From a virus: 64,000 bases of DNA. Under the pieces are notes generated by a model. It searched no databases and was not told the DNA's origin. It saw nothing but the letters and a program-made list of their open reading frames with translations. The stretch lies in IMG/VR virus record IMGVR_UViG_3300031885_000004, positions 17,510 to 81,509 of that record. One strand, written 5' to 3'. Positions 3,856-63,567 of this stretch are shown here, in pieces; position 1 is the first letter of the stretch; the number at the start of each line of letters is the position of its first letter. The translations under genes and the position numbers were made by a program.

Positions 3856-5106
3856 CTATCCGCAAACAATCATTTCATCTAATTGTGCGCCGGTCCCAAC
3901 ATATATTAGCTCGGCTTTAGTTTCACGCAAGACTGGGATTATATTTTCATCGGCCCACATCGCGAATTTGTTAGTTACAATGTTGTTTTGGTGTGGGCGC
4001 ATTAAAGATCCAGTTAGCCTGCCATGTTTACCAGTCATTTCATAGTCAACATAATTTGCAAAATTAACCGATATAAATGTCTTCCCAAGCGTCGAGTTAT
4101 ACCTAATAGCTTGTATTAGATTCTCTTTACTAAATGTAAAGACTCTCCTTGGTAACTTGGTCACTGATGTCATTTCGATTATTGGTATTGGCGATCCGCT
4201 AGATTTCGTAACATCATCCCACGATATTTCCCTTTGGTCGCCATAACCAGGTCCAGAGTCACCGTGATATATCGTGACTTTCCTACCAGTTTGATTATAT
4301 CTCTGCGTTTCTTCCCAGGTTAAATGCTTCCCAGATTCGTCAAGATACTTATTGCTATTAATTCTGATTGGGAATGTCCTGCAATTAAGAACCACATTAC
4401 CGGCATATCTGACAGGAAGCATCATATCATCAAACCCAGCAGCCACAGTAACATTCCTAGATGTACAATGCGGGTACATCGGTCCCATTAGACTTAACTG
4501 AAACCCCTGTGCTATCTCAAGAAGGCCAGACTGACCACGGTCGAGCCTGGCCATTATCTCTTCCGATGTGTCGCAAATAAATTCTTTGAGTGATTCAATA
4601 TTCTTGGCAATCAGCACGTCGTCGCGTCTTAATACTCTCCTCGCCCTACATGCTCCAACTCCGTGACAGGTCGATCCAGCCTTCATTGTTCCTTCGTGCT
4701 TGGTCGGCTTGCCATCAAAGTCGACTTCGCCTCTCTCGAATGCAGAGTCTTTATCTTGAATTATGGTGGCAAGGGGGTGCATCCCTAAGCGTTTGGGTTT
4801 AATGTTGTTCTCTTCGATCTCCCTGAAGAATGCCTTAAGTTCTATTGACGATCCTGGTCCAATATACATCTTTTCATATTGGTCTAAATACGCGCAACTG
4901 TTAAGTGTTTGGTAGAAATAAGCCTTCCCAGGAAATCTAACCCAGTGACCTGCTTGAGCCGAAAAAGCGTTACAGCAGAATTGCCAGTTGTCGGCGTATT
5001 CGCACATGAACGAAGCAACCTTGCCTTTGCCAGAGCTCCCGGCGCTTGCGTCCATACAGATCGTCAACTTGCCTGGCTCAAAAACTTTATTTGTGTCGAA
5101 GCGCAT
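3856..5106 (-). CDS. purZ: PurZ-like N6-succino-2-amino-dAMP synthetase (adenylosuccinate synthetase family)
   Basis: GSSGKGK (Ser in place of the PurA catalytic Asp of GDEGKGK), AGH, EIAQG, YPHCTSR, PIR, SGxxYxDQxExxW, TSVTKLPRRVFTFS, NFANY instead of TKLD; AAAGGAG SD before ATG 5106. Confidence 0.82.
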   Translation of the reverse strand: MRFDTNKVFEPGKLTICMDASAGSSGKGKVASFMCEYADNWQFCCNAFSAQAGHWVRFPGKAYFYQTLNSCAYLDQYEKMYIGPGSSIELKAFFREIEENNIKPKRLGMHPLATIIQDKDSAFERGEVDFDGKPTKHEGTMKAGSTCHGVGACRARRVLRRDDVLIAKNIESLKEFICDTSEEIMARLDRGQSGLLEIAQGFQLSLMGPMYPHCTSRNVTVAAGFDDMMLPVRYAGNVVLNCRTFPIRINSNKYLDESGKHLTWEETQRYNQTGRKVTIYHGDSGPGYGDQREISWDDVTKSSGSPIPIIEMTSVTKLPRRVFTFSKENLIQAIRYNSTLGKTFISVNFANYVDYEMTGKHGRLTGSLMRPHQNNIVTNKFAMWADENIIPVLRETKAELIYVGTGAQLDEMIVCG

Positions 5107-5119
5107 GATATCTCCTTTA

Positions 5120-5800
5120 TCACTTAGCGGCATTAACCGCTTTGGCTGCCAATTCACCGGTTATGTGGAGGGCTTGTTGTAGTGTTACATCAAACACTAG
5201 TCTATTGTCGATTTTTAGTAGCTCATCAATCATGGTCGCGTCTATATTACCAGACACCTTTAGTGGTCTAGCTGTCATGCTTCGAATTCTCTCGATAGCT
5301 ATTGCATGTTCTTTGGCCCCAACATTAGGGATAACAAGGTGCTGATCAATTCTAATCATGTGTGGTGGATATTTGTCGCATGATTTGGTGAAATTGTCGA
5401 TTTCTTCTTTGGTTCTTGTATAATACCCGAACACATACCTAAGTTCAATAAGAGGATTAACCCTTCTCATTAATTCACCAATAGCTTTGACCTCATTAGA
5501 TGTTTCGATTTGAGTTTTTTTACTGGTCAGTAATATATCAATGCCCTCAACCCGAAGGGTCATTGGGTTGATCGTCTTAAGCTTATCTGTTGCGAAATTC
5601 TTCCCGTCTGGAAAGTCAATGGCTGCTATTAATTTAAACTGCCCTCCTTTGGTCGATCTGTCGGTTAACATCATTGGGGTAAATTCTGGAGCAATAACAA
5701 CAGCTGGGCATCTATATTTCACGGCAAAATTGGTGACTGCATTGTGATCGACGTCTGGTTTTAACATGTTGATTTCTAGGTGTGATGTAATATTAAACAT
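5120..5800 (-). CDS. Divergent DeoC-like (deoxyribose-phosphate aldolase-like) TIM-barrel protein
   Basis: AVVIAP, AAIDFPDG (compare TVIGFPLG), GIDI, LKVSGNI (compare VKASGGI); Schiff-base Lys motif not obvious. Confidence 0.55.
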   Translation of the reverse strand: MFNITSHLEINMLKPDVDHNAVTNFAVKYRCPAVVIAPEFTPMMLTDRSTKGGQFKLIAAIDFPDGKNFATDKLKTINPMTLRVEGIDILLTSKKTQIETSNEVKAIGELMRRVNPLIELRYVFGYYTRTKEEIDNFTKSCDKYPPHMIRIDQHLVIPNVGAKEHAIAIERIRSMTARPLKVSGNIDATMIDELLKIDNRLVFDVTLQQALHITGELAAKAVNAAK

Positions 5801-6416
5801 TGTTTCCTCCGTTCATTCGCTCTAGATCTTCTCGACGCCACGTTAGGAAAATCCATTTGACTGGGTCTAGTTTAATTAACCCTTTATCTATCTTTAAAAC
5901 ATGCTTTAATAGACTATCCCAGTCTTTGAAGAAAACGTTGCTATAATCATCGGCTGTTGATGCCGCGCCCAATATCCATGTTGAAGGAATTCCGTCTGGG
6001 CAACAAAACAACACTGGTTTGCCTTCATATATGGCGTCGTATACCTCCTCACAAGTCCCAAAAGTTGGTTTGATTGGCAAATAGCATATAACCCAATCCA
6101 CAGCACTAACAATTCTCAAGCATACTTTACGCATATAAGCATTAGCCGTGAATACATCGCGCACATTGATGGTGGTGAAGTTGTCCTCACCACATATTGT
6201 CTTAGCAATTGCGGGGCCGTCCCGCAGAACCTCCCTATACACAGCAGGATTAATGCGACATGATGATGGGAACCATTTTGGCTTGATTAATGGATCATAT
6301 ACTTTTATCCCAATCGCCGATAATTTAATGGCCAGCTCGTTTCTCCAAGAGCTGGCCATTAAATCGTGTTCAACTGGCCCTGCAAGATAGCAGGTGGTGT
6401 TGTGTAGTATGCTCAT
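5793..6416 (-). CDS. Nucleoside 2-deoxyribosyltransferase / nucleotide N-hydrolase-like protein
   Basis: YLAGPVE...WR...VYDP...DWVI...TFGTCEE...GKPV pattern of the NDT superfamily. Confidence 0.75.
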   Translation of the reverse strand: MSILHNTTCYLAGPVEHDLMASSWRNELAIKLSAIGIKVYDPLIKPKWFPSSCRINPAVYREVLRDGPAIAKTICGEDNFTTINVRDVFTANAYMRKVCLRIVSAVDWVICYLPIKPTFGTCEEVYDAIYEGKPVLFCCPDGIPSTWILGAASTADDYSNVFFKDWDSLLKHVLKIDKGLIKLDPVKWIFLTWRREDLERMNGGNNV

Positions 6417-6963: not shown

Positions 6964-8025
6964 TTATTTTTGCGCCTCAGTTTCCTTTTTGGTCAACAGT
7001 TCATTGGCTCGATTCAAAATAACATCTACCGCTCCAATTTGATCTAAATTTTCAAAGCTCGAGACAAATTTAAACTTATTGTGTGATGAGCAGAATGTAA
7101 ATCTCGCTAACTCCTCTGGCTTAAGGGTGCTAATAGCATAATCGTAATGCTCAGCTTCTTTTTCAAATCGTTTAATTCTATTCTCATTTGATACGTCTGG
7201 ATTCTGTCCATACCTGTGCAATTTGCCATCAACTGCACTCATGTCACATCCGAATATATATGATTTTTCATACCCCATCCACAATGCGACTTGCATCGAG
7301 GCGTACGTCGTTGATCGCCCAATATGGAATCCTCTAGTTAGGTCGCGTGAGAACCCCTTACCAGCCATCGTCTTAACCATAATTTGATTTGGATGTGTGG
7401 CCCTAACCGAAGATGCGTTAATAATTGTTCCTTGGTAGCTAGACCAAAATTCTTGATTTCTATTGTATTGTGATTGATCACAGAATATCCAATATTTGCT
7501 TGGCCAGACTCTTAACTCTGGTTTATTGATGCACATAATGTCTATTTTAACGTGCCCAAGCAACTTATCAAGAGGAGCTTGATTGATAGATGGCCCACAT
7601 GCTAAGATAACCAAAATTCTGCTATGCCCAATCCCTCGTAGGTTTCTTATCTTATCTAAGTGCTTCCCGAGAAGCGCGTCCTGTGCTTTACGAAGATGAC
7701 TTGGGCGCACCTGAGTTAGGGTTCTCTCTTTTGTCTTAGGTCTTATTATTGAAACTTGATTTGGTATCACAGACGATCTTGGTTTGGTGATGGTTGGCGC
7801 CAATGATGACTTTGGCGGCGTTCTTATAATGACGTGCTGCTGCGGTTTTACTGCTGGCACCCTATTATAAACTGTAGGTATTTTGACAGCTCCCTTTGGA
7901 TGTAGTGAAATTGATTGTGATATGGACGATACTTTTATAATTCTGACTGGTTTGAATATTGGATTAACTTTTAAATTCATATCATATATATTTTTGAATA
8001 TGTTATGTGATGACAGTCTTGTCAA
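6964..8025 (-). CDS. MAF_flag10/DUF115-like (sialyltransferase-like) domain with a basic N-terminal extension
   Basis: ILACGPS, MCINK, WIFCD, STTYASMQVALWMGYEKSYIFGCDM. Confidence 0.7.
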   Translation of the reverse strand: MTRLSSHNIFKNIYDMNLKVNPIFKPVRIIKVSSISQSISLHPKGAVKIPTVYNRVPAVKPQQHVIIRTPPKSSLAPTITKPRSSVIPNQVSIIRPKTKERTLTQVRPSHLRKAQDALLGKHLDKIRNLRGIGHSRILVILACGPSINQAPLDKLLGHVKIDIMCINKPELRVWPSKYWIFCDQSQYNRNQEFWSSYQGTIINASSVRATHPNQIMVKTMAGKGFSRDLTRGFHIGRSTTYASMQVALWMGYEKSYIFGCDMSAVDGKLHRYGQNPDVSNENRIKRFEKEAEHYDYAISTLKPEELARFTFCSSHNKFKFVSSFENLDQIGAVDVILNRANELLTKKETEAQK

Positions 8026-8440
8026 TAGTTGACAGAGAGCCCCAGATATGATTTAATTGCGTCGATGACAGCTGATCTTTGATGTCCACGTTGGATAAAG
8101 CTCTTTTTGCGTATTTAATTATGGCTGTCTTTCTGCGGGCGTCTCTGTTCTTTAAGCTGTATAAATGTCTGAAGATAGTCGTGGTTAGTAAATTGAATAC
8201 TGGTGCTCTATCATCAAACGTGAGTCTACCGTCTTTAATCTTATCCATGGTCAAAATAAATGCTTCGTGTGCTAGATCGGCGTGCTCTTCTTCATCTTTT
8301 GGTCTGAATTTAGTTGATATTCCGATACAGATCTTATAAACCTGTTGCTGGAGCCCTTCCCACGCGCTATCACATTTTTCTATTTTCCATTTAGACCAAT
8401 TTCGTTCGATTTCTTCTGAAGATACATAATTCATAATCAT
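8003..8440 (-). CDS. Small sigma-factor-like protein (region 2 only, similar to T4 gp55)
   Basis: EHADLAHEAFILTMDKI...FD....VFNLLTTTIFRHLYS resembles sigma regions 2.2-2.4. Confidence 0.6.
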   Translation of the reverse strand: MIMNYVSSEEIERNWSKWKIEKCDSAWEGLQQQVYKICIGISTKFRPKDEEEHADLAHEAFILTMDKIKDGRLTFDDRAPVFNLLTTTIFRHLYSLKNRDARRKTAIIKYAKRALSNVDIKDQLSSTQLNHIWGSLSTIDKTVIT

Positions 8441-14248: not shown

Positions 14249-16408
14249 TTATCTACCCCAGCCGATATCTACCACCTGGACATTCGCTTGTTGCGTTAAA
14301 GTCTCTATGGTTCCTTTATATTGAGAAGTAACTCTTATAGAATAACCTCGGCAACATTGCGATCTTGTATCATTAATCATCACATTTATAACTATATCAA
14401 CATCTACACCAGACAATGGCTTAACCATAAACGTAACATTACCTGGTATAGACGATAGCTCAGATGCACCGCCGCCGCTTATTTCGGCGTTTTTGTTATT
14501 GTCCTCAAATATTATAGTGCTATGGACAGAACAATTATCTTGATACTGACAATTATCACGCTCTTTTGAACCACCGCACAATTCTGGCTTCCAATCGAGC
14601 TGCACTGTAATATCAACTGGGCCGTTAGATTTTATGTTGGCTTTGTATGTGTCTGTTCTTCCATCTACAACACTATATTGCGTAGATGATTGGAGTCGAT
14701 TTGATTCGTCAACCACCATCTGATCTAATTGCATCCCACCATTTTGTAGCTCAAATGTGATTGGGCTATCGCAATCACAATCACATTCTGGTGGGTGTGG
14801 TTTTGGGGCCTTCAGAATTGGCTCTTTAGCTTCACCATCGCATGCGAGTCCTTGCGCATTGGCGGCGCCAGATGGCAGTTTTTCAAGCTCGCCACATCTC
14901 CAATGGTTGACCCCGCATGGATTGTCCCCAACATTTGGACACCAGAAGAACGGCTCCTGGCAACATTGCTCATTTGGCCGTGGTGGAGTCACTATTCTAA
15001 ATGGATATTTAGGATCCGTTAAGTCCCACCATTCAAATTTATACGCATTGTAGCGTGCGGCTGATAGACAATCTGGCGTCGGCTCCCACGATGGCAGTTC
15101 TAATTCCGGCGGTGTATATTCAGGTGGTGCATATTGATAATATCCAATGTCTTTGCATCTCCTGGTTGTGACTTTAGCAGCCGCGAATTTCGCTTGCATA
15201 ATATCACCAACCGGTAGTGAACTGGCGCTTAAGGCTAAATTGCTAACACATACATCTGTTGGTAACGAATAAGATAAAGAGAACATACTATTTGTAAGGT
15301 CAGATTTTCGCAAACTAGATATGACTGACCCAGATTGTATCGATGTATCTGCAAGTATTTGGTTTGATACAAACAAAAATGGCGAGCCATCCCTTCCAGC
15401 TTGACCTTTTGGCCCTCTCTGCCTTACTTTATATCTCCAACTTGAAATATCACTAGCACCTTTAGTAAACGATAGTGTACCCCATATCTTATTAGTGCTA
15501 TGATCAAAATTGATTTCAGTATTTGTGATACTAATATCTATTCTATTATCATATATTATAATAGTGAGAGGCTTCGATTCTTCTGGCCACACACTAGCAG
15601 TTAATAGACTATCAATTATTCCTTGGATTCTAACGACATCAATCCCAAGTGAGACTATACTTTCTAGTTTAATAATGGCCGCATCTATATTGTTATTTTG
15701 TACATCTCCATGCGCCTCATATTCTAATTCAGACGCTTGTTTTTGTTGATCAGTCAGGTTCTGACTTTCGCTTCCACCAACTACGATTGGCGACGTCCCC
15801 CCAGATATCCTAATTAAATATTCAACTAGGATCGTATTGGCGCGATATAATCTAAGTGATATGTCCGCATCTATTGGTGTGTCGACTGTAGTTTCAAATT
15901 CAAACTGGTTGTCAGAAGCATGCGTTGGTAGGAAATATCGCTCGCGCTCTGCTGGTATACCATCTCTACCAGTTATGCCTTTTAACCCAACTTGTCCTTT
16001 CGGACCGGCACAACAACTACGTAGGAGCTTCTGGTATAACCTATTCCTATCAAGTTCAATTTGCAACTTACCATTTGGCCTTGGATAAAATCTTATTAGA
16101 TCATCAGACGAATAGAAGAAATAATAATAAGGAATGTCACCTGGAGTATCGAGTTTGAATAAACCAAAATCCATTCCTTTGTCTATTAATTCTTGAATTA
16201 ATAACATTCTCTTATAAAGCGACGGGTATACCAAACCATCGTTATATCTAGTAACAAGATCTGGAGATTCAATCCTGCCCTTGTATACCCACGTATCATG
16301 CTCAGTATTATACTCGAATATATTACCATTACCATCGATGATTTGGTCGCCATCTTTCATCCCCCTGGATGGCAGTTTGGGCGGAGACGGTGTTAATTCT
16401 TCTGTCAT
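14249..16408 (-). CDS. Putative virion structural/fibre protein with short collagen-like and Cys-rich segments
   Basis: GPKGQVGLKGITGRDG and GPKGQAGRDG G-X-Y runs; clustered Cys. Confidence 0.5.
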   Translation of the reverse strand: MTEELTPSPPKLPSRGMKDGDQIIDGNGNIFEYNTEHDTWVYKGRIESPDLVTRYNDGLVYPSLYKRMLLIQELIDKGMDFGLFKLDTPGDIPYYYFFYSSDDLIRFYPRPNGKLQIELDRNRLYQKLLRSCCAGPKGQVGLKGITGRDGIPAERERYFLPTHASDNQFEFETTVDTPIDADISLRLYRANTILVEYLIRISGGTSPIVVGGSESQNLTDQQKQASELEYEAHGDVQNNNIDAAIIKLESIVSLGIDVVRIQGIIDSLLTASVWPEESKPLTIIIYDNRIDISITNTEINFDHSTNKIWGTLSFTKGASDISSWRYKVRQRGPKGQAGRDGSPFLFVSNQILADTSIQSGSVISSLRKSDLTNSMFSLSYSLPTDVCVSNLALSASSLPVGDIMQAKFAAAKVTTRRCKDIGYYQYAPPEYTPPELELPSWEPTPDCLSAARYNAYKFEWWDLTDPKYPFRIVTPPRPNEQCCQEPFFWCPNVGDNPCGVNHWRCGELEKLPSGAANAQGLACDGEAKEPILKAPKPHPPECDCDCDSPITFELQNGGMQLDQMVVDESNRLQSSTQYSVVDGRTDTYKANIKSNGPVDITVQLDWKPELCGGSKERDNCQYQDNCSVHSTIIFEDNNKNAEISGGGASELSSIPGNVTFMVKPLSGVDVDIVINVMINDTRSQCCRGYSIRVTSQYKGTIETLTQQANVQVVDIGWGR

Positions 16409-16995
16409 GGTTTTGGCCTAAATAGGTTTTGCCTACCACGTTCCAAGTTATGTTTGATTATTTTCTTCTTTTGCTTAACAGATATAGGCATATTGTCTGG
16501 AATGTGCTCTATAACCGTAATTATTGGTTTAGCATTAATTATGGTGTTATCGACTGAGATTAAGTCAATCGATTGGATCCACGATACAGTTATAACTTTG
16601 GAAAATCCTTCGAGCAATTTCGGCATATCTATATCATGACTTTCTTCTATTTCTTCTTTTGTATAATCATCACTGGAACATTGATCAATTGGGCGAGTTA
16701 CAACATAGGCGCATATTGCCGCCCCAAGTTTTCTTGCTATGTCGATTATCGATTTCCTATGTGAAAGTTTATTATATATCGTTGTATCTATTATGATATC
16801 TCCTCTAACTATAAAAAATGCAATGAGCTGCTGGAGGATCTCATAGTCGTTGTCTCCGAATCCTATGCTAAAAGCAAGTTCTTCAATAGATATTCTATAA
16901 ATATTCTTCTTCCCAATTTGCATATATCTAGCAAACGTCGTCTTCCCAGAATTGTGTCCACCACACAATAGGTGAATTATCCTTGGGTTAACCAT
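16405..16995 (-). CDS. P-loop kinase (AAA_33/PNK-like)
   Basis: CGGHNSGKTT, IIIDTT, R motif. Confidence 0.7.
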   Translation of the reverse strand: MVNPRIIHLLCGGHNSGKTTFARYMQIGKKNIYRISIEELAFSIGFGDNDYEILQQLIAFFIVRGDIIIDTTIYNKLSHRKSIIDIARKLGAAICAYVVTRPIDQCSSDDYTKEEIEESHDIDMPKLLEGFSKVITVSWIQSIDLISVDNTIINAKPIITVIEHIPDNMPISVKQKKKIIKHNLERGRQNLFRPKP

Positions 16996-18451: not shown

Positions 18452-18976
18452 TTATGATGCCTGCATGGTGTAATCAAATTCTTCTTCCTCTGGTGGTATC
18501 AGAGCATTAAATTGCCCACGCACGGCATCCTCCGGCACTCTCTTGTCTCCACGCGTTAGTTGTCTAGCTACCAGAGTTTCGACGTCCGCGCCTGGGAATG
18601 TTATTGCAATAGCTACGTATCCAAATTTCTTAGCGTTCTCAATATAAAAAGACCTACGCCTAGGTGTCAGATTGGTATTATCAACATATATGTCTTTCCC
18701 AGTTTGAATCAATCTTATAAATTCATCATTAGCTTTATTTGAAAATTGCAAGTCTTCAGACGATTTCTTCCAAGCTACAGCATAATCTTTTGGGTCGTAC
18801 CAGCGGTGGCGAAGAATATCAAGCGAAAAGACTTCAATATCTGGATTGTGTCTTTTAAGCTTGTTTAGAAATGTACTTTTACCAATACCAGAAGGTCCAA
18901 TTGGCATATATAGCATTGGCCTATTTGGTATATCTGGGTCTTCTGTAATAAACCTAGCTATATCTGCTGGTTCCAT
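18452..18976 (-). CDS. AAA_33/polynucleotide-kinase-like protein with ITEDPD leader
   Basis: IARFITEDPD followed by GPSGIGKST, SLD, VDNTNL...RR, VPEDAV. Confidence 0.85.
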   Translation of the reverse strand: MEPADIARFITEDPDIPNRPMLYMPIGPSGIGKSTFLNKLKRHNPDIEVFSLDILRHRWYDPKDYAVAWKKSSEDLQFSNKANDEFIRLIQTGKDIYVDNTNLTPRRRSFYIENAKKFGYVAIAITFPGADVETLVARQLTRGDKRVPEDAVRGQFNALIPPEEEEFDYTMQAS

Positions 18977-25213: not shown

Positions 25214-26626
25214 ATGGAAGATGTCAGAACACCAGACGCAATAGATGATATAGAGATTAAATATCCAGGACCAAAAGATTTGGTGCATCTGCACTCACAT
25301 ACTATATTTTCAGCTCTTGATGGTATTGCATCACCAGAAGATTATATGAAAAGGTGCGGAGAACTTGGTATGTCAGCTATTGCCATAACCGATCATGGGT
25401 GTCTTGCATCTTTCCCAGACGCTTATTTTGCGGCCAAAACATATAAGATAAAATTCATACCAGGATGTGAGATATATTATAATGATCACCACAATGAACT
25501 ACAGGAATTCCAAAAAAGTGGTAATAAATGGTCATCTTTGAAATTGTTGGACCTAGAAAAATATGAATTATTACGCAGGCATAGACACGTAACTGTTTTG
25601 TCTAAAAACCAAGTTGGGTATAAAAATTTAATCCATATGACTACCAATGCATGGGAAATTGGCCATTATTATAAACCAAGAATCTGGATGGATATACTTG
25701 ATAGCCATAAAGACGGGCTAATTATTCTTAGTGGGTGTATGAATGGTCCGGTATGTCACGAGATAAGGGCAGCACACGAATTAACCATTAAAGGCCAAAA
25801 TTCGGAAGCAAGTAGGCATTTAGAGATGGCCAGACAGTGGTTAAATGATATGCGCGAAATATTTGGGAAGGACCTATATATTGAAATGCAAATGCCGGGT
25901 AAAGACCTTGACGGGTCAATCCAAGCTTTCGCGACATGCGCGAGATGGTCTGATGAATTTGGCATAAAAGCCGTCATAACTAATGATTGCCATTATATTC
26001 ACAGACAAGACTTTGATGTTCAAAAATGCATGATGGCGGTTGACCAAAAAAAGACATTAGATGATCCTGAGCTATTCACCACCAATTCAAGCGAGCAATA
26101 TTTTAAGAGCAGATCGCATCTTAGGGCTATATTCCACGAGCATGGCTATAATGCAGATGTTAGTCAGGCTAAATTTGAAGAAATTTGCGATAACACTGTT
26201 GAAGCTGCAGAAAAATGCGATGGGTTTAAACCAGACCTATCACCAAAATTACCAGCCATTAAAAACGCTAGTGATAAACTAACAGTTTTAGTATTAAATG
26301 CTCTCAAGGATAAGGAGTTATATAATAGCCAGAAGAAATATGAAGTTGATGGAAAGATGGTCACCCATAAAGAGCAAGCCCTGATAGAATTAAGTCGGAT
26401 CATCTCGAAAGGCTTCGCGCCATACTTTTTAGTGATTCGAGATTTAATACAATATTCTATTAATAGTGGATGGGATGTTGGTCCTGCCAGAGGTAGCGCT
26501 GGCGGATCATTGGTTTGTTTTCTAATCGGGATCCACGAGCTTGATCCATTAAAGTGGCACCTATCATTTAATAGGTTCATGTCGCCGTCTCGAGGCGGCA
26601 ACATGCTGAAAGTATCAATGGAATAA
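25214..26626 (+). CDS. dnaE: DNA polymerase III alpha, N-terminal part (PHP domain plus start of palm)
   Basis: HLHSH..FS.LDG, AITDHG, GCEIY, SGC, TNDCHY, GPARGSAGGSLV, F.RF; ends before the PDID motif. Confidence 0.92.
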   Translation: MEDVRTPDAIDDIEIKYPGPKDLVHLHSHTIFSALDGIASPEDYMKRCGELGMSAIAITDHGCLASFPDAYFAAKTYKIKFIPGCEIYYNDHHNELQEFQKSGNKWSSLKLLDLEKYELLRRHRHVTVLSKNQVGYKNLIHMTTNAWEIGHYYKPRIWMDILDSHKDGLIILSGCMNGPVCHEIRAAHELTIKGQNSEASRHLEMARQWLNDMREIFGKDLYIEMQMPGKDLDGSIQAFATCARWSDEFGIKAVITNDCHYIHRQDFDVQKCMMAVDQKKTLDDPELFTTNSSEQYFKSRSHLRAIFHEHGYNADVSQAKFEEICDNTVEAAEKCDGFKPDLSPKLPAIKNASDKLTVLVLNALKDKELYNSQKKYEVDGKMVTHKEQALIELSRIISKGFAPYFLVIRDLIQYSINSGWDVGPARGSAGGSLVCFLIGIHELDPLKWHLSFNRFMSPSRGGNMLKVSME

Positions 26627-27398: not shown

Positions 27399-27758
27399 AT
27401 GAAAATTGAGACTGGTGGGATAGTCAGTAAAAAGACTGGGTCGAAGTTCGCTGTTATAATTAAGATAGGTAGTGAAATTAGATCGTATGTGCATGAAGTC
27501 AAATCAGATTCGACACTTAATTATGTTGAATTATTGGCGGTTAAATTTGCTTTACTTGGTTCGAATGTTACACCAATAATAATTTCAACACCAAACGTCT
27601 ATGTATGTGATATCTTAAGGCATGAGGGCGATAATTGGCTAAAACTGCCAAAATCAAATAAAGAACTAGTAGATGAAATCAGAAAGCTTATAATAGAAAA
27701 GAATGCATCAATAACGTTCGAAAGAAACGAAGAAATTAGGAAACTGTGTAGCTCATGA
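27399..27758 (+). CDS. RNase HI-like protein, degenerate
   Basis: STLNYVELLAVKFAL, NVYV, W...KSNKELVDEI; first catalytic Asp not evident. Confidence 0.55.
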   Translation: MKIETGGIVSKKTGSKFAVIIKIGSEIRSYVHEVKSDSTLNYVELLAVKFALLGSNVTPIIISTPNVYVCDILRHEGDNWLKLPKSNKELVDEIRKLIIEKNASITFERNEEIRKLCSS

Positions 27759-30700
27759 CGTGGAAGGAACTGAAAAGATTGGCGGCCAACACCCTCGCCA
27801 CGAGGTTTAAGGGTAGAACTACAGAATATACCGGAAGGTTAAGATATGAATTAGACCAAATAGAGTTACAGGGTGCTGAGGATTATTGGATTGACCTATA
27901 TGATAGTAAAAGAACGTTCGACACCAACCATAATGGGTTGGTATTTCCACTGCTTCTTGGGATAACCAGCATCAACCCAATAGAACGCAGCATACCACAT
28001 AATATTGTATATCAACCAGATTATCCAGACATTGATACTGACTTCCTACCGATAGCACGCGATCATATTAAAAAATATGCATCAAAACAATATGGTGAGG
28101 ATCGCGTATGTAGTGTTGGGTTGTGGCAGACATATAAACCAAAGTTGGCGATAACAGACGTGTGTAGGGTAATGAAGATTGACCCAACAGAAGCGCAGAG
28201 GCTTACTAAAGAACTACCAGATGAATTCGACGATATGGATTTTGAAGCGGCATGTAATGCCTACCCGAATTTTAAGACATTTGCGGACAATAACGACAGC
28301 GTAATCAAAATGTCGTATAGGCTAGTGAAATTAATTAGGTCCCAAGGAAGACATGCAGGTGGGTTAATAATATCAAGCGTACCAGTACGTGATTATATTC
28401 CTCTTACTAAAAGCCCATCTGGACCAAAAGGGCAATGGACATCGGCGTGGACGGAAGGCAAAAGCACTCAACTGTCAAAATTTGGATTTATAAAATTTGA
28501 CATACTTGGCTTAACCAACCTTTTGCATATATGGATATGCAAACAGTTTATAAAGAAAAATCGCGGAGTTATAATCGATTGGGGCGATATGGACCCCGAG
28601 GTTGATAGGGCCGGGTGGGAAATATTGCCGGATGGCACCAAGAGCGCCATAAGTTTTAAGGACGACCTAGCGTTAGATATGGCCGATAAGAGAAGAGTAG
28701 AGACCATATTCCAATTTGAAACAGATCTCGCTAAAAGCATAATCCAAAAGGGGCATGGTGTAAAAAGTTTCTATGACATGGTTATTTATACGTCTCTTGG
28801 TAGACCAGGACCTTTACCGCTGGTCAACGATTATGTTGCAAGAAGAGACGCCAAAAATGATGATTGGAAAACCAAAGAGGACCCTAAAATAGTAGAAATT
28901 TTATCAGACACTTACGGGATTATAGTTTTTCAGGAGCAACTAAGCAAGTTCTTCATCAAAATATGTGGATTCACAGTACCAGAAGCCGAAGCCGCGAGAA
29001 AGGCTGTAGCTAAGAAGTGGGCCGATCAACTAAAAAAGATCAAAGACAAGATGATTGCTGGGGCTACCAAAACAATCGGGCACGATAAGGCGGTTGAGTG
29101 GTGGGGTAAAATAGAGTCATTTGCTAGATATTGCTTCAATGCCTGCCTAGACGGCGACACGACCATTGTCAATCCAATAACATTAGAAAGGACGACGATA
29201 GAACAATTATATCTAAATCCAAAGCCGTTCAAGCTGTTGTCATTTAATAATGGTGAACTAGTAGCCGACGATGTGGTCAATATACACTACAATGGCATGC
29301 TGCCAATATATCAAGTTATGTTTAGTAATGGGCTTACGCAGAACGTGACTATTGGCCATAAATTTATGAATGTTTATGGCAACATGGAAACTGTTAAGTC
29401 TCTCTTGAAGACCGGTCATGCAATCAAATATATAAGTGATAGCATGACTGGAGGAGAATATGTTTCACAAGCTAAATCTGCAAATAGAGAAAGAAGTGGT
29501 AAGGATGTACCAGGAGGGTGCATCATACAAAGAAATAAAAAACGACATAAGAGCATTTTCATCGGACGGAACGATAAGGAGAATAATAAAAAAGCATGGC
29601 GTACAGAGATCATTTATAACTCAAGCATCCAACAGTGTGAACCATTATTACTTTTCGAAGATAGATTCGCCAGAAAAGGCATATTGGATCGGGATGTTGA
29701 TAGCAGATGGGTACGTTCACAACGGGAGGGGATATGTAAGTTTGCAGCTCAATTCGAAAGATCAATTGCTGGTGGAGCAATTTGGCCAAGATATAAAAAC
29801 ACCAAGGAAGATGGTAATCTGCAAGAAACAGCGTGCTGGTCCGCAATCGAGGATATCAGCCAGCAGCAGGATGTTATTAGCGGACCTAAGCAAATATGGT
29901 GTGATTCAGGGAAAAGAAGGACGGGAGATAATGCCACGCATGCGGTTTATTTCCCATCTTCTGAGAGGGCTTATGGATGGAGACGGAACGATTATCGTAA
30001 ATGGCAAGGGATATCCTATGGTAAAATTTTGCGGATCTCCGAAAGTAGTAAAAGGATTCAGGGACGCGATAATCAAGCACTGCAGGGTAAGAGTGAGCAA
30101 GATAACAGAATATTCAGAGAGGATGAACGCTGTGGCGTGGTCTGGCCTAAAACAGTGCAAACCGATCCTGAGATATCTCTACAGGGGGGCAACGAGATTC
30201 TTGGTAAGGAAGCAAATCGTAGCGGATGCTATATTAAGAGCATCAGATATATCGGAGTTAAGAGGACATATTCGCCAGAGATGAGATCTATTCAGCACAA
30301 TTACATAACCTCACCACAGGATGGTCAACCAATACAAGCAAATTCACATGCAATGGCTTATATAGTTATTACATTTAGGTGTTTGTGGTTGAAAGCCCAC
30401 TATCCAACAGAATGGTGGGCATCGGTCATGACGAATTGCAAACGCGAAAAGTTGGTTAAGTATATGGGAATCGCTAGATCTGAGGGAGTGAAATTCGGCT
30501 CCCTTGACTACAACCAGCTTAGCCAGACTTTCTCGGTCAGCGGGGATACAATTACTTTGGGGTTAGAAAGCATTAAAGGCATTGGCGATAAAGCTGCATT
30601 AAAAGCGCAAGGCGACCGCGATTGCACCAGTTTTGATGAATTTGTGTCACAAGCATCGAAGAACAAAATAATATTTGAGCGGTTAATTAAACTCGGCGCA

Positions 30701-31342
30701 TTTGATAAATTACACCCAAATAGGAAAGCATTATGGAACTGGTATCTTTATAAATATGGATCTGGGAATGACACCAAGATCGTTAAAGAAGAAGTGGCGG
30801 CCAAATTAGCGTGGAGCGATGAGAATATTGCTAAAGAGAGGCTGAGACAGACTAAAGAATTTCTAGCCAATTATCCTAGGAAAAAGAAGATACCAGCTCA
30901 TATAGAAAAATGGAAACCGAAAAACAATCCGACAATCCAACAATTCGAAGAAATGTTCGGAGATTTTTCATATGAGGAAAGGCTAAAATTTGAAAAGGAA
31001 TATCTTGGATATTATTGGAGCTCGCCTCTTGGTATATATAATTGCGCCAACCAAACTATAGATGATGCTAGATCTACTGGGATTCTTGAGGCGGTGATTG
31101 ATAGCATTGATACTAGGAGAGGCAAAAACGGAGCATTTAAACAATTAAATGTCACAGATGGTATTGAAATTGCCAAAGTAATGGTGTGGCCCGATGAACT
31201 TGCTATCAATGACGAGAATATATTCAAGGAAGGCATGGGAGTTAGAATGAGAGTATCTTGGAAAGAAGAATATTTGAGCTTTAACGTTAGATCAGGCTCA
31301 ATTGTATTGCCACTGGAGAAGAAGAATGCTGCTCCAATCTAA
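27755..31342 (+). CDS. dnaE: DNA polymerase III alpha catalytic part, intein-containing
   Basis: YPDIDTDF, GRHAGG, KFDILGL, FQFE, RPGP, FQEQ, YCFNA-[intein]-SHAMAY, LKAHYP, GLESIKGIG, EKEYLGYY. Confidence 0.95.
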   Translation: MTWKELKRLAANTLATRFKGRTTEYTGRLRYELDQIELQGAEDYWIDLYDSKRTFDTNHNGLVFPLLLGITSINPIERSIPHNIVYQPDYPDIDTDFLPIARDHIKKYASKQYGEDRVCSVGLWQTYKPKLAITDVCRVMKIDPTEAQRLTKELPDEFDDMDFEAACNAYPNFKTFADNNDSVIKMSYRLVKLIRSQGRHAGGLIISSVPVRDYIPLTKSPSGPKGQWTSAWTEGKSTQLSKFGFIKFDILGLTNLLHIWICKQFIKKNRGVIIDWGDMDPEVDRAGWEILPDGTKSAISFKDDLALDMADKRRVETIFQFETDLAKSIIQKGHGVKSFYDMVIYTSLGRPGPLPLVNDYVARRDAKNDDWKTKEDPKIVEILSDTYGIIVFQEQLSKFFIKICGFTVPEAEAARKAVAKKWADQLKKIKDKMIAGATKTIGHDKAVEWWGKIESFARYCFNACLDGDTTIVNPITLERTTIEQLYLNPKPFKLLSFNNGELVADDVVNIHYNGMLPIYQVMFSNGLTQNVTIGHKFMNVYGNMETVKSLLKTGHAIKYISDSMTGGEYVSQAKSANRERSGKDVPGGCIIQRNKKRHKSIFIGRNDKENNKKAWRTEIIYNSSIQQCEPLLLFEDRFARKGILDRDVDSRWVRSQREGICKFAAQFERSIAGGAIWPRYKNTKEDGNLQETACWSAIEDISQQQDVISGPKQIWCDSGKRRTGDNATHAVYFPSSERAYGWRRNDYRKWQGISYGKILRISESSKRIQGRDNQALQGKSEQDNRIFREDERCGVVWPKTVQTDPEISLQGGNEILGKEANRSGCYIKSIRYIGVKRTYSPEMRSIQHNYITSPQDGQPIQANSHAMAYIVITFRCLWLKAHYPTEWWASVMTNCKREKLVKYMGIARSEGVKFGSLDYNQLSQTFSVSGDTITLGLESIKGIGDKAALKAQGDRDCTSFDEFVSQASKNKIIFERLIKLGAFDKLHPNRKALWNWYLYKYGSGNDTKIVKEEVAAKLAWSDENIAKERLRQTKEFLANYPRKKKIPAHIEKWKPKNNPTIQQFEEMFGDFSYEERLKFEKEYLGYYWSSPLGIYNCANQTIDDARSTGILEAVIDSIDTRRGKNGAFKQLNVTDGIEIAKVMVWPDELAINDENIFKEGMGVRMRVSWKEEYLSFNVRSGSIVLPLEKKNAAPI
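29144..30343 (+). mobile_element. Intein (400 aa) in DnaE
   Basis: Starts CLDGDT; block B TIGHKF; block F YSPEMRSIQHNYI; ends QAN|S. Removal restores YCFNASHA. Confidence 0.9.
29460..30284 (+). CDS. LAGLIDADG homing endonuclease nested in the +1 frame inside the intein
   Basis: N-terminal HTH; KAYWIGMLIADG and LLRGLMDGDG motifs; GGAGGAG SD at 29450; CAAATATA at 29425. Confidence 0.9.
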   Translation: MFHKLNLQIEKEVVRMYQEGASYKEIKNDIRAFSSDGTIRRIIKKHGVQRSFITQASNSVNHYYFSKIDSPEKAYWIGMLIADGYVHNGRGYVSLQLNSKDQLLVEQFGQDIKTPRKMVICKKQRAGPQSRISASSRMLLADLSKYGVIQGKEGREIMPRMRFISHLLRGLMDGDGTIIVNGKGYPMVKFCGSPKVVKGFRDAIIKHCRVRVSKITEYSERMNAVAWSGLKQCKPILRYLYRGATRFLVRKQIVADAILRASDISELRGHIRQR

Positions 31343-39350: not shown

Positions 39351-39728
39351 ATGCCAAGATATAATTACGCATGCCAGAGTGGTTGCAAATTGTCAGATGT
39401 CAAGAGTGAGCTAAAAGACGTTGTGATAATTGTGGCCAAATCTGGTAGGCTGATCTGGGAAGAAGCACACAGTATTAAAATCACACCTTCTATTAAATGC
39501 CCTCTATGCAGAGGCGCGGCATCAATAACACTTGAGGGGGTGCTTGCGCCTGTATCTTATATAAGAGGTTACGGCTATCTCGACAAAGCTGGGTGCAGAC
39601 GGAACATGAACTTGCACAAGTTGACAACAGATGATCCGTATGCACACATGCGAGAACGAGGAGAGGCAGACGACCTCAAGTGTCGGCTTAAAAAGGGTAA
39701 AACACCAGTCAAGAAGTATTTCGCATAA
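39351..39728 (+). CDS. FmdB-like Zn-ribbon protein
   Basis: MPRYNYAC...CPLC. Confidence 0.65.
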   Translation: MPRYNYACQSGCKLSDVKSELKDVVIIVAKSGRLIWEEAHSIKITPSIKCPLCRGAASITLEGVLAPVSYIRGYGYLDKAGCRRNMNLHKLTTDDPYAHMRERGEADDLKCRLKKGKTPVKKYFA

Positions 39729-40837
39729 TGTTATTATTAACAGCCTTCGACTACACAAAATATCCATATAAACCGTTATTGTCGTTACTTAAAATTGGCG
39801 ACAGGACGGAAATTTTTTATTTATATGCCAAAGGGTCCAACCGGAAGATATACGATGTAACCTCTGACATATTTGCTATTGGGAATATCGTGGACTCATC
39901 GCAGGAACCAGTGTACCTTAATGACGCTAAATCGCATATAATTGCATTTAATTTACGAAATAATCATAATCTATACCAACTAACAGCCGCCATACCCACA
40001 CTAAGCAACAATAGATATATAGAGCTATTTAATTCAATTGCTTTAGTTGACCTTAAACCAGATAGATGGAGGAACCTACTCGGCGCCAGTTCCTCCACAT
40101 ACATATCAATGGAAAGGAAGCCGATATTTCTCGATGAAATAAAAGTACAACCGATCTACGCACTTGATACTTATACTGGTAGATCTAGGTGTCATAACTA
40201 TAACATCCAAGGTGCTCCGGAAGACACTCCAATCAGAACGGAAGATGCAGATAACTTATTCATATGCTGCGATTGGATGGCTGCAGAAATTAGGGCTGCA
40301 GCCTTACTGTCTCATGATGAATTGTTAAATGAAAGTTTTATAAAATCAGATCCACATACGATGTTATCGGAGGAGCTTGGTATTCCAAGAGATGAATGCA
40401 AACGCCTATATATGCGCACGATTTATTCTATTGATCTTGATTCCCCAATCTTGGAAATATATCCAAAGTTAAAAGAGTGGATGCAGAATCAGCTAAACGC
40501 GCTGGAAAGGGATGGCTCTTTATGCTCGCCTCTTGGTCGAAAATTTAAATTGGGTAGTCGTGACACCAAAAGCGTATTTAATGCGGTATTGCAAGGGACG
40601 GTTGCCCACGCGATGCAATCATCATTAATAAAATTGTCTGATAAATTAAAAGCATATATGCTCACTGAAACACATGACTCAATCATATTCTCTTGTAGAT
40701 CAGGGCTTGTGCCGCACGTAATAAAAGAAGCAACACAGGTGATGTTAAGACCATTGACTGAAATGGATACGTTCCCTCTTAGAGTTTATGTTGGGCGTCA
40801 ATGGAAGAAGTGGAAACTATATAGGGAATATAGATGA
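39728..40837 (+). CDS. Short family A DNA polymerase (polymerase domain only)
   Basis: TGR, NIQ, motif A DWMAAEIR, motif B RxxxKxxxxxxxY, NxxxQG, motif C THDS. Confidence 0.85.
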   Translation: MLLLTAFDYTKYPYKPLLSLLKIGDRTEIFYLYAKGSNRKIYDVTSDIFAIGNIVDSSQEPVYLNDAKSHIIAFNLRNNHNLYQLTAAIPTLSNNRYIELFNSIALVDLKPDRWRNLLGASSSTYISMERKPIFLDEIKVQPIYALDTYTGRSRCHNYNIQGAPEDTPIRTEDADNLFICCDWMAAEIRAAALLSHDELLNESFIKSDPHTMLSEELGIPRDECKRLYMRTIYSIDLDSPILEIYPKLKEWMQNQLNALERDGSLCSPLGRKFKLGSRDTKSVFNAVLQGTVAHAMQSSLIKLSDKLKAYMLTETHDSIIFSCRSGLVPHVIKEATQVMLRPLTEMDTFPLRVYVGRQWKKWKLYREYR

Positions 40838-56839: not shown

Positions 56840-57361
56840 ATGAGGCTTTCTGAGCTAGTTGAAGACGTAAGCGGAATAATTAGCAAACCATACTTATATC
56901 ACGTAACGAGCAAGTCAAACCTTCCAGCGATACTTTCTAACGGCCTGATCCCATGCCGTAAGGGGGTGGTGTTCCTTAGCTACTCAATAGAGGCCGCCAA
57001 GAATTGGGCATCAGCCCTCGAAAGTTCACACCCAGTAATTATCAAGCTCAAGCTACAAGATTGCCTCCCGATCTATATGAGAGACTTCGTCTACACTTCT
57101 CCAGCTAAGATGTGGGGCCGCGATGCTGCAAATCCCGACGACGATAAGCCGCTACTTTATGCTAGATGGAGTAGCAAGCATGGAGGAGCAGGTGACCTAG
57201 TCAAGATAGAATCGATAGAGGAGTTTAAGGACTGGCTTGAAACGATCGAAGCATATAATGTCGACATCCATAGGGAACAAGTTAGCAACTATGATATGTT
57301 AGAGGTGATGGTTGACAGGCCAATACCACCATCGGCGATAACTGGCGTCATATCAGTTTGA
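56840..57361 (+). CDS. ART-fold-like protein with MRL..E leader
   Basis: MRLSELVE; LYHVT...NL..IL..GL.P...VFLS...A; late EV. Confidence 0.65.
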   Translation: MRLSELVEDVSGIISKPYLYHVTSKSNLPAILSNGLIPCRKGVVFLSYSIEAAKNWASALESSHPVIIKLKLQDCLPIYMRDFVYTSPAKMWGRDAANPDDDKPLLYARWSSKHGGAGDLVKIESIEEFKDWLETIEAYNVDIHREQVSNYDMLEVMVDRPIPPSAITGVISV

Positions 57362-60485: not shown

Positions 60486-60659
60486 TTTGTACATTAGTAT
60501 ATATGCCGCTTCCACGCGGAAAATATCGCTCGCTTGAAAGAAAATAGAGGACCTGGGTGGGGATCCCCCATCCCCCTCCCCATGGTCCCCATCCCCTCCC
60601 CCCCTCTCCGGGAAGTACCAGAATATTCTGTGTGTGGTACTTGGCGCGGGGCGGCTCGA

Positions 60660-60817
60660 CCGGCGGCGGGGCGGCGGCGCGGGGGGGCGCGGGCGCGGGG
60701 GCGCGGGGCGGCGCGGGGCGGCGCGGGCGCGGGGCGCGGGGCGGCGCGGGGGCGCGGCCCGGCCCGGCGGCCCGGCGGCCCGGCGCGGCCCGGCCCGGCG
60801 CGGCCCGGCCCGGCCCG
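60660..60817. repeat. Tract of about 158 nt containing only G and C
   Basis: Visible directly in the sequence. Confidence 0.9.
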
Positions 60818-60883
60818 AGCCCGGACAACGGGAAACCGACCGCCCCGGCGATTGACCGGGGAGGCGGCAGATAGAGGTGGAGC

Positions 60884-61273
60884 ATGTTCACCATTCCCGA
60901 CGTCCGTCCCGACAGCGCTCAGGTTCAGCACCCGGCGGTCTCGGAGTACACCCTGAAGGTGTACGCCGCCCGCTACCCGGCGATCAAGTTCGTCGGAACC
61001 GACACGTGGACGCTCCCCGAAGAGCACGGGAAGAAGGGAGTCCTCGTCCAGTGCCAGTGCGGGAAGGTGGTCTTCCGCAGGACCTCGGACCTGCACACCT
61101 TCGTCGGGTGCCTGATCTGCAAGCCTGCGATCCGCGCCACCTCCGGTGCGGAGCGCAAGCTCGAGCGGACCCTGGGCATGCTGAAGGCCCTCGAGGAGGC
61201 CAAGGCCATCGAGGCGGCGCGGATCGCCGCCGCCAAGGCCCTCGTCGAGGGGGGCGGCACGACCGCCACCTAG
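60884..61273 (+). CDS. Hypothetical (putative early) protein with CxC/CxxC motifs
   Basis: GAGGTGGAG SD; strong GC3 bias. Confidence 0.75.
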   Translation: MFTIPDVRPDSAQVQHPAVSEYTLKVYAARYPAIKFVGTDTWTLPEEHGKKGVLVQCQCGKVVFRRTSDLHTFVGCLICKPAIRATSGAERKLERTLGMLKALEEAKAIEAARIAAAKALVEGGGTTAT

Positions 61274-62196
61274 GGACGGACTCCACCCTGCGGACTGGGC
61301 CGGGGGACCTCTCCCCCGGCCCTTTCTGCATGGGCGGCGGACATGTGGGGACACCCTATATAGGGTACCACACACGTCCGCGAGGACAGGCCGACGTGTT
61401 AACTCACAAACATTATATTGGTTAACACACGTCTTGCCCGGCCCGGCCACGGGATTTTTATTGTTAAATTAACACACAAATAATATATTGTTAACACACG
61501 TTATATCCTCTTTGCTTTCACTGCTGACGACCATCTTGAATTGGTTGTGGGACCGCGATGAAAGACCCCTTCTCGGGGGGCGGCGGGGCCGGTGGTCCGG
61601 GGGCGGCGCGGCGGCCCCCGAGAAGGGGCCGCCTGGTGATTTGGGTGAGGCTTCAGAGGGTTCTGCATGATTCTCGTGACCGTGCGTGGCCGAGCGAGTG
61701 CCAAAGTGGTGCCGAGATCCGGCTCTCTGAAGGTCTCCCTACTTTTTGAGGCAAGTGCCGAGGAGGGATTATGCGTTAATCATTTCAAAGGGCTCCAAAT
61801 CAGAAGTGCAGCGTCTACGACGATCGATCTATTCATCAGCAGCGGGTAGGGCCTAACGGACCTGCCCGCTTTTAGACCCTCCACTCTATCGAAGCATTCG
61901 AGGCGGGGCTCGGCGCTCCGCCCGAATGCGTAGACTGGCTGCTCTTGGGTAGCCGGTCTACGCATTCGTATTCGTACATCACAGGGCTGATAACATACCA
62001 CGTGGCGGCGCAGGCCGCTCAGTACATCACACCCTCGGTGGGCGGAATCGGCGATCCGCGTTTTAATGACTGCAATTCTTCCCCCTACTTGTATGTGGGG
62101 GAAGCGCGGTCCGACGTTGCGCTCACCTATTTTGTACACCACACCGGTTCCACGTGGAACGCGGTGTTAGGAAGGTTTGTTTGTGGAGGGGTCAAC

Positions 62197-62400
62197 ATGA
62201 AGAGCGACTGGATCTGCGACTGCGGGCGGCGGAAGAAGGCCGGGACGGCGGTGTGCTCGGGGTGCAAGAGCGAGTCGAAGGCCCTCGAGAAGGGCAAGAT
62301 GGATCGCGTTCTCAAGTTCGCGGCGGGCCGCTTCTTCTACGAGTTCAGCGACCCGGCGAACATCCAGACCGGCCTGGTGGTCGCGTACAAGGCCAAGTAA
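62197..62400 (+). CDS. Small Zn-finger protein
   Basis: GGAGG SD; CDCG...CSGC. Confidence 0.75.
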   Translation: MKSDWICDCGRRKKAGTAVCSGCKSESKALEKGKMDRVLKFAAGRFFYEFSDPANIQTGLVVAYKAK

Positions 62401-62421
62401 CATCACACGGGGCGTTCGATT

Positions 62422-62448
62422 GGGGCGGCCATTGGCCGCCCCTTTTTT
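62422..62448 (+). terminator. Intrinsic terminator
   Basis: GGGGCGGCCA-T-TGGCCGCCCC followed by T6. Confidence 0.85.
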
Positions 62449-62451
62449 GTG

Positions 62452-62498
62452 TATAAGAATCAACGCCCACGAAGAGCCCCTCCTCGCGGCGCGGCGGG
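62452..62498 (+). repeat. 47-bp direct repeat, copy 1 (copy 2 at about 63156-63202)
   Basis: TATAAGAATCAACGCCCACGAAGAGCCCCTCCTCGCGGCGCGGCGGG occurs twice. Confidence 0.9.
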
Positions 62499-62596
62499 CG
62501 CGGCGGCGGGGGGGCGGCGGGCCGAGCCGCCCGGCGCGGGGGCGCGGGGCGGGGGTTGCCCTTTGTGTTCGGTGTCGATTTTGCGGAGGGTTACAC

Positions 62597-62971
62597 ATGG
62601 TCAAGTTCAAGTCGGGAATGCAGGCCAAGATCGTCGGGAACAGCGGCAACCATTCGCTCCCTGACGGTGAGATCGTCACGCTCACCCAGCGCATGGCGAA
62701 CGGAATGTGGATGACCGACCGGGGGGTCTACGTCAACCTCCGGGACATCAAGGCCATCGAGCTCACGGAGAGGGAAATCCAGGAGGAGATCGCGAAGCTC
62801 AAGGCCGAGGTCGACGTCCTCGAGGCTCGCGTCCGGTGGATGAAGGAGACGAACACGGCGCAATACGACGAGACGGAGTTCAAGGTCTGGATGACCTTGA
62901 AGGCGATGGACAAGAAGATGAGCCCGATCGAGCGCGCCCGCATGATCGCCCGCATCATCAAGGGCGAGTAA
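62597..62971 (+). CDS. Hypothetical protein (SH3-like N-terminus plus coiled coil)
   Basis: GGAGG SD; GC3 bias. Confidence 0.8.
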   Translation: MVKFKSGMQAKIVGNSGNHSLPDGEIVTLTQRMANGMWMTDRGVYVNLRDIKAIELTEREIQEEIAKLKAEVDVLEARVRWMKETNTAQYDETEFKVWMTLKAMDKKMSPIERARMIARIIKGE

Positions 62972-63023
62972 GCCCAGCGGGCACCACACGCCGGGGCGGG
63001 GGCAACCCCGCCCCGGTTTCGTC

Positions 63024-63095
63024 GGCCTTGCCCCACCGGATAATAGCCCGGTTGAGGGAAGGTGAAAGGGGGTTCGATTCCCCTCAAGGCCGCCA
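63024..63095 (+). ncRNA. tRNA-like RNA lacking a canonical D-arm
   Basis: Acceptor stem GGCCTTG/CAAGGCC, G-CCA end, T-arm GGGGG-TTCGATT-CCCCT, atypical middle section. Confidence 0.6.
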
Positions 63096-63109
63096 GACCC
63101 ACCTTCGCT

Positions 63110-63152
63110 AGGCGGAGGCAAGGATTTTGATCGCCTTGCCTCCGCCTTTTTT
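63110..63152 (+). terminator. Intrinsic terminator
   Basis: AGGCGGAGGCAAGG...CCTTGCCTCCGCCT followed by a T-run. Confidence 0.85.
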
Positions 63153-63538: not shown

Positions 63539-63567
63539 CCCAGCCCGGCCTGACTTCGTCCTCGGTT

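Follow-up and report, generated by a model that had tools for sequence, protein, structure and literature searches.

A PurZ-type synthetase gene packed with NDT-like and DERA-fold genes in an uncultured large DnaE-type phage: a possible variant system for 2-aminoadenine precursors

The viral DNA considered here, a stretch of 64,000 nucleotides that we call the window, comprises bases 17510-81509 of the 81.5-kb IMG/VR record IMGVR_UViG_3300031885_000004, whose CheckV completeness is ~22%; a nucleotide search against phage records returned no match. Our subject is a trio of genes near the beginning of the window that appear to encode a synthetase of the PurZ type, a protein with the fold of deoxyribose-phosphate aldolase (DERA, DeoC) and a member of the NDT superfamily:

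3856-5106, (-) strand: PurZ-type synthetase homologue, 416 aa counted from Met18, which is the start used in the database copy
3856-5157, (-) strand: longest form of the PurZ-like open reading frame (ORF), 433 aa, with a GTG start
5120-5800, (-) strand: TIM-barrel protein of the DERA/DeoC fold according to AlphaFold2 (AF2) and Foldseek, 226 aa
5793-6416, (-) strand: predicted NDT-superfamily protein resembling DmtZ, 207 aa, a putative deoxynucleoside monophosphate (dNMP) N-glycosidase or deoxyribose-5-phosphate transferase

An earlier note on this DNA, made from its letters alone, had described an NDT-like, a DeoC-like and a PurZ-like gene on one strand, and the three (-) ORFs are indeed tightly packed and co-directional: the gap between the PurZ-like gene (from its Met18 start) and the DERA-like gene is 13 nt, and the DERA-like and NDT-like genes overlap by 8 nt.

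The product of the first gene had been taken for a PurA-family protein with PurZ-type signatures, and this holds: it matches PF00709 (E 9e-17) and PHROG 1211, '2-aminooxy adenylosuccinate synthetase' (E 1.8e-33), and the motifs GSSGKG, PIR, SGPGYGDQ and NFANY are all found in it. Its closest solved structure is phiVC8 PurZ (6FKO, E 3e-23), followed by Pyrococcus PurA (E 2e-20) and S-2L PurZ (E 4e-19); because the latter two score nearly as well, the PDB scores alone cannot decide between PurZ and PurA. Individual residues were read from an alignment of the window's family with E. coli PurA (EcPurA), six PurZ and the PurZ0 of phage Ghobes. At the position of EcPurA Asp13, 100% of phage PurZ are reported to have Ser and 99% of PurA to have Asp (PMC12884076); 18 of 18 aligned clade members have Ser there (within GSSGKG in the window). 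TSR replaces TSS, TKLPRR is present, and the window has VNFANY where Ghobes PurZ0 has LSFADQ and EcPurA has LTKLD, the GTP-specific TKLD being replaced; in phiVC8, F295 and Y298 of the corresponding NFxNY motif stack on ATP (residue roles from PMC12884076 and bioRxiv 10.1101/2025.10.22.683976). The equivalents of phiVC8 S14 and T262 (Ser and Thr) are likewise present.

Phylogeny, which the earlier note had named as a check, agrees with the residues. In a maximum-likelihood (ML) tree the window's family, represented by 18 rows (the window, 16 IMG/VR relatives and the cultured Flavobacterium phage MaF61), is monophyletic (support 100/99) and groups with the PurZ of phiVC8, S-2L, SH-Ab 15497, PMBT28 and OH (99/96), with Ghobes PurZ0 outside. 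Judged by residues and phylogeny, then, the predicted synthetase is PurZ-type and not PurZ0. The clade is well populated: metagenomes hold more than 120 PurZ-like clusters at the 90% identity level, at 53-71% identity and on contigs of up to 370 kb. A separate observation concerns a contig of a Candidatus Saccharibacteria metagenome-assembled genome (L024), where a PurA-family gene at 1764-2879 has GSEGKG, with Ser at the Asp13 position, and TFADY, and is joined by the tree to Ghobes PurZ0 (96/80). A possible explanation is that a phage contig bearing a PurZ0-like gene was binned with the assembled genome.

The NDT-like protein of the window matches only PF15891 when searched alone (E 0.0026), and its family matches more broadly, with 33 of 37 members hitting PF15891 and 29 of 37 hitting PF05014. 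The AF2 model (pLDDT 84) has the NDT fold and matches the NDT of Chroococcidiopsis (CtNDT, Foldseek E 2.6e-6), DNPH1/Rcl and MilB, so that the NDT-like assignment stands. Of particular relevance is DmtZ, which belongs to the NDT family and occurs in PurZ0 actinophages; it hydrolyses dAMP to adenine, transfers deoxyribose-5-phosphate (dR5P) to 2-aminoadenine (Z) and works together with DutZ (Poubanne et al., NAR 2026, PMC12884076). The DmtZ triad consists of Tyr6, Asn77 (Asp in most NDTs) and Glu103, with Asp12 as the proposed contact to the 6-NH2 of adenine and Trp124 as a lid (PMC12884076). We took Ghobes DmtZ to be gp53, from the residue numbers published in PMC12884076, and aligned the NDT-like family to it with hhalign (E 7e-4, probability 26%, residues 98-154 only). 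The aligned segment pairs E124 with the nucleophile Glu103, W147 with the lid Trp124, T118 with Thr97 and C99 with Asn77, the last being the position at which the window protein departs from the triad. Toward the N-terminus, YLAGPVE was matched by eye with YFARPVD of DmtZ, which places Y10 at Tyr6 and another acidic residue, E16, at Asp12; since the hhalign alignment spans 98-154 only, these two correspondences rest on a side-by-side reading of the motifs.

Conservation within the 37 family members follows the same positions, with E124 and W147 in all 37, Y10 in 36, E16 in 35 (Asp in the other two) and T118 in 35. Position 99 is Cys in 25, Asp in 9, Gly in 2 and Asn in 1, from which we conclude that the column is the canonical Asp/Asn triad position but that the window's subgroup has switched to Cys. 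In this superfamily the phosphate-binding hydrolase type has Thr or Ser, and not Asp, at the sixth residue ahead of the nucleophile, as in Rcl compared with NDT. By that analogy, T118 fits a 5'-phosphate pocket of the hydrolase type.

The protein encoded between these two genes has no Pfam match (the DeoC model PF01791 included), no PHROG match and no PDB sequence match, and a profile of its family finds no DERA in the PDB up to E 10. Its predicted fold is nonetheless that of DERA, in keeping with the earlier note's term 'DeoC-like': in the AF2 model (pLDDT 93.6) the top ~50 Foldseek matches are all DERA (TM 0.72-0.80, E ~1e-11), and an ESM Atlas model concurs, with a structural match at TM 0.81. 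Active-site positions were mapped by strand register, by the near-equal length of the 224-aa B. halodurans DERA and by an hhalign alignment to E. coli DeoC that is insignificant and served only as a hint for the register, so that the correspondences below are not a residue-level superposition. On this mapping E. coli D102 corresponds to D88, K201 to K181, and the Schiff-base lysine K167, on strand 6, to Arg150.

An exhaustive profile search collected 231 DERA-like clusters at 50% identity, of which 151 representatives were aligned. Two of the class I DERA residues are kept, D/E88 in 151 of 151 and K181 in 140 of 151, and the family has a constellation of its own, with K73 in 150 of 150, E103 in 149 and R121 in 143. 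At the Schiff-base position, 150, Arg is found in 137 of the 151 representatives, Lys in 9 and another residue in 5. A rule that at least one of the two DERA lysine positions carries lysine held in 33 sequences and then failed in 3 full-length members of the 151, and was dropped. Arg at the Schiff-base position means that a canonical deoxyribose-phosphate aldolase, and with it plain cleavage of dR5P, is not supported; the clearing of the sugar phosphate, as it had been suggested for this locus, is accordingly a part of the earlier interpretation that finds no support here. By sequence and model, we regard the protein as belonging to a re-tooled DERA-fold family and not as a canonical class I aldolase.

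Synteny was examined by tblastn and profile searches in 17 related records, namely 16 IMG/VR loci and phage MaF61; the IMG/VR relatives came from an alignment-based scan of viral contigs, a single-protein scan having given none. The NDT-like gene is present in 9 of these records and the DERA-like gene in 10, and wherever both occur they are adjacent, on the same strand and in the order NDT then DERA (9/9). The pair adjoins the PurZ-like gene or lies within ~3 kb of it, and it stays beside that gene despite an inversion in one locus (L008) and insertions of small genes totalling 1-2.3 kb in three others (L009, L010, L016). The earlier note had said that a lack of linkage in related genomes would refute its reading; with the linkage found in 9 of the 17 records, that refutation did not come about. 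In the tenth record with a DERA-like gene (L011), the NDT slot is filled by a different ORF (7468-8097, 209 aa) with an N-terminal Cys4 zinc-ribbon motif, a GTNFEYG motif recognised by eye and no Pfam match; this may be a second, unrelated solution of the NDT type.

We searched the whole 81.5-kb record for other genes of known Z pathways and found no match to HD, YfbR-like, MazG, DUF550 and DUF5664 (PF04447, PF18909) or dUTPase domains, and no DatZ, MazZ or DpoZ either beside the PurZ-like gene or anywhere else in this ~22% complete record. DatZ and MazZ are usual companions of PurZ, though not necessary ones. The earlier statement that no HD or MazG gene is recognisable in the window therefore extends to the full record. 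A relative that is 91% complete (G005) has no HD, MazG or YfbR match above the cut-off, and does hold an HD_4 protein, a sub-threshold PF04447 match and a dUTPase-domain ORF. The only records with HD or MazG matches over the Pfam cut-off are ones that have no NDT/DERA pair (G011, G012, G014 and MaF61). This distribution suggests alternative helper sets, but the records are fragmentary and large phages often carry such domains. In two relatives (L006, 11939-12487; L007, 12410-13039) the PurZ-like gene is followed, 0.7-1.1 kb downstream, by a gene of the dUTPase superfamily that resembles dCTP deaminase; the L006 copy, which is the one that was scanned, matches PF22769 at E 4e-29. This gene could be a dNTP pyrophosphatase partner or an ordinary Dcd, and it has no counterpart in the present record.

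Our preferred reading, to which we give roughly an even chance, is that the trio serves a large DnaE-type phage as a nucleotide-pool module, most likely feeding Z into its DNA, in other words a variant Z-precursor system. As its residues and phylogeny suggest, the PurZ-type enzyme would join dGMP and aspartate, with ATP, to give N6-succino-2-amino-dAMP, which host PurB and host kinases would carry on to dZTP. By its likeness to DmtZ, the NDT-like enzyme would attack dAMP through Glu124 as the nucleophile and release adenine, the dR5P intermediate being either hydrolysed or handed to another base; the outcome would be a lowered adenine deoxynucleotide pool, in place of DatZ. The third step is the weakest: the DERA-fold protein, whose gene directly follows the NDT-like gene in all nine records that have both, might take the dR5P product, or another phosphorylated sugar related to it, as its substrate, through a strongly basic, re-tooled active site (K73, R121, R150, K181) and not through the canonical DERA lysine.

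A variant Z pathway with NDT-type removal of dAMP had been proposed in the earlier note, and the PurZ-type residues and tree, the hydrolase-type pocket of the NDT-like protein, its likeness to DmtZ and the gene linkage all argue for it here; its novelty, on the other hand, does not stand, the principle having been published with DmtZ (PMC12884076). NDT and UDG domains have also been linked to contigs predicted to contain dZ (Yang et al., bioRxiv 10.1101/2025.10.22.683976), and together these two papers already establish NDT-family dAMP removal in Z phages in principle. The present locus resembles the DmtZ/PurZ0 system in that a PurZ-family synthetase lies near an NDT-superfamily enzyme in a record where no DatZ was found. 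It differs in having a PurZ-type synthetase (NFxNY, grouping with PurZ), in belonging to a large DnaE-type phage and not to a 45-kb actinophage, in having no adjacent or fused Dut-like gene and none elsewhere in the record (two relatives have Dcd-like genes near the PurZ-like gene), in the Cys at the triad Asn77, and in its DERA-fold partner, no such gene being reported in PMC12884076.

With the PurZ-MazZ-DatZ(-DpoZ) clusters of S-2L, phiVC8 and the Acinetobacter phage SH-Ab 15497 it shares the diagnostic PurZ residues and the tree grouping, whereas the window protein is ~60 residues longer, its clade sits on a long stem and MazZ, DatZ and DpoZ are missing from the 81.5-kb record. The NDT-domain proteins of Yang et al. 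belong to aquatic phage contigs for which dZ was predicted, and one tested enzyme prefers a dA donor; those enzymes were assayed on nucleosides and co-occur with DatZ and PolA, not directly with a synthetase, whereas here the gene is co-directional with the PurZ-like gene and the pocket looks to be of the phosphate type. Class I DERA/DeoC, finally, shares with our DERA-like family the TIM-barrel fold and the equivalents of Asp102 and Lys201, and is set apart from it by Arg at the Lys167 equivalent, by the family's own invariant Lys73 and Glu103 and by the lack of detectable sequence similarity. The literature searched has no description of large DnaE phages with a PurZ-type clade, of an NDT partner whose triad position is Cys, or of the DERA-fold partner. 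If these phages do carry Z, Z-genomes would extend to jumbo phages with DnaE-type replicases, and adenine removal of the DmtZ type would have arisen or spread beyond PurZ0 actinophages. The DERA-fold partner represents an unannotated family with a conserved non-canonical active site; once its reaction is worked out, it could bring a new step into non-canonical nucleotide metabolism and perhaps supply a tool for the enzymatic synthesis of Z-DNA.

Several observations weigh against the Z-feeding module, among them that no dATP pyrophosphatase was found in the fragment. The window has Ala at the equivalent of phiVC8 F12, where some clade members have Phe, and Gln at EcPurA Asn38, and the stem of the PurZ-like clade is very long (2.45 substitutions per site) in a tree with long branches, one PurA as the only outgroup and no PurA from archaea; the stem and the two residues together mean that the substrate could have shifted. 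The synthetase might on these grounds be a diverged PurA-type or other 6-oxopurine nucleotide enzyme in a module that remodels purine pools (salvage, AMP supply or breakdown of host dNMPs), with no Z in the DNA. In keeping with this, no DatZ-like gene or Z-specific polymerase was recognised, the replicase being DnaE-type and the PolA-like protein only ~24% identical to generic phage PolA. We nevertheless find pool remodelling without Z distinctly unlikely, given that every clade member has Ser where PurA has its catalytic Asp13 and that the ATP-type NFxNY replaces the GTP-specificity motif.

The similarity of the NDT-like protein to DmtZ is only marginal by hhalign, its triad position 99 is most often Cys, and its linkage to the synthetase has gaps: both pair genes are missing from seven more distant records with a PurZ-like gene, among them the complete 168-kb genome of MaF61, and in a 595-kb uncultured phage (LR756511.1) an NDT-like gene occurs with neither of the other two genes. 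The conserved block, moreover, reaches from SbcCD to the PurZ-like gene and takes in the sigma-like and MptE-like genes, so that collinear genomes may account for some of the linkage. On that view the pair and the synthetase would be independent: the PurZ-like enzyme might make Z, and the NDT-like and DERA-like proteins would serve another nucleotide or DNA-modification route, possibly together with the MptE-like protein, their genes being neighbours only through collinearity of the replication region among close relatives; the epimerase and the several glycosyltransferases encoded in the window would suit such a route. Against this stand the persistence of the pair beside the PurZ-like gene through the inversion and the insertions, and the precedent of DmtZ in Z phages (PMC12884076), which makes a shared function the simpler explanation, and we consider independence unlikely.

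The Arg at the Schiff-base position, which also counts against the proposed module, bears most directly on a third rival, the exact scheme of the earlier note, in which hydrolysis of dAMP by the NDT-like enzyme is followed by a true aldolase reaction, the DeoC-like protein splitting dR5P into glyceraldehyde-3-phosphate and acetaldehyde by means of a lysine at another site (K181 or else K73, which is invariant). The DERA fold, the retained D102 and K201 equivalents, the universal K73 and the strict adjacency of the gene to that of an enzyme whose product would be dR5P all favour such an aldolase. It is made quite improbable by the predominance of Arg150, by the three full-length members with no lysine at either DERA lysine position, and by the finding that neither the Pfam DeoC model, nor the family profile run against the PDB, nor hhalign against E. 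coli DeoC connects it with DERA. A bolder version of the Z-feeding module is that uncultured DnaE-type jumbo phages have a third Z-DNA layout, combining a long-branch PurZ with a DmtZ-like N-glycosidase and a new DERA-fold family (K73/E103/R121/R150/K181) that would process dR5P by other than class I aldol chemistry, the pair replacing DatZ; we put this forward tentatively and on balance doubt it.

The surroundings of the trio are a phage replication and recombination region with SbcCD-like, split DnaE, UDG-superfamily, RecA and DnaB-like helicase genes, a short PolA-like protein and UvsY-, gp32- and FEN-like genes. The neighbours and replication genes referred to above are:

6964-8025, (-) strand: MptE-like protein (g353, PF01973) with a Pro/Lys-rich N-terminal half, the upstream neighbour of the trio
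8003-8440, (-) strand: small protein (g145), sigma-70 region 2-like by inspection, upstream of the trio
25214-26626, (+) strand: PHP/N-terminal part of DnaE, a split gene
27755-31342, (+) strand: remainder of the split DnaE, 1195 aa
33170-33853, (+) strand: UDG-superfamily protein (PF03167, E 1.3e-27)
39728-40837, (+) strand: short, very divergent PolA-like protein, 369 aa, matching the C-terminal part of PF00476 only

PF01973 is matched by 10 of 10 members of the MptE-like family (best E 4.6e-5), and the gene is syntenic in 9 related loci; in 8-9 of the related loci it and the sigma-like gene are both conserved immediately upstream of the trio. The conserved upstream genes were considered as missing pathway enzymes and set aside, g145 being sigma-like, g353 MptE-like with no clear nucleotide role, and g164 having no matches. 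That the phage encodes DnaE, as the earlier note had stated, is correct with the qualification that the gene is split: its parts are separated by ~1.1 kb that holds two small ORFs, and the finger and HHH domains are set apart by a gap of ~470 residues that an intein would fit. The PolA-like protein shows no specific likeness to DpoZ. The UDG-superfamily protein has the same domain that Yang et al. tied to dZ-modified contigs (bioRxiv 10.1101/2025.10.22.683976).

Elsewhere in the window, the GC content rises from ~0.40-0.50 to 0.57-0.75 across 60500-64000, the final 3.5 kb of the record, a stretch with no Pfam matches and a tRNA-Gln (63567-63640) as its sole Rfam match, which could be a chimeric join, a host flank or a foreign element. 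An ORF at 56840-57361 on the (+) strand has weak matches to the RNA 2'-phosphotransferase Tpt1/KptA (E 7e-5) and to DarT (E 2e-3) and may have an ADP-ribosyltransferase fold. Two AAA_33 P-loop kinase-like proteins, at 16405-16995 and 18452-18976 on the (-) strand, are candidate nucleotide or polynucleotide kinases.

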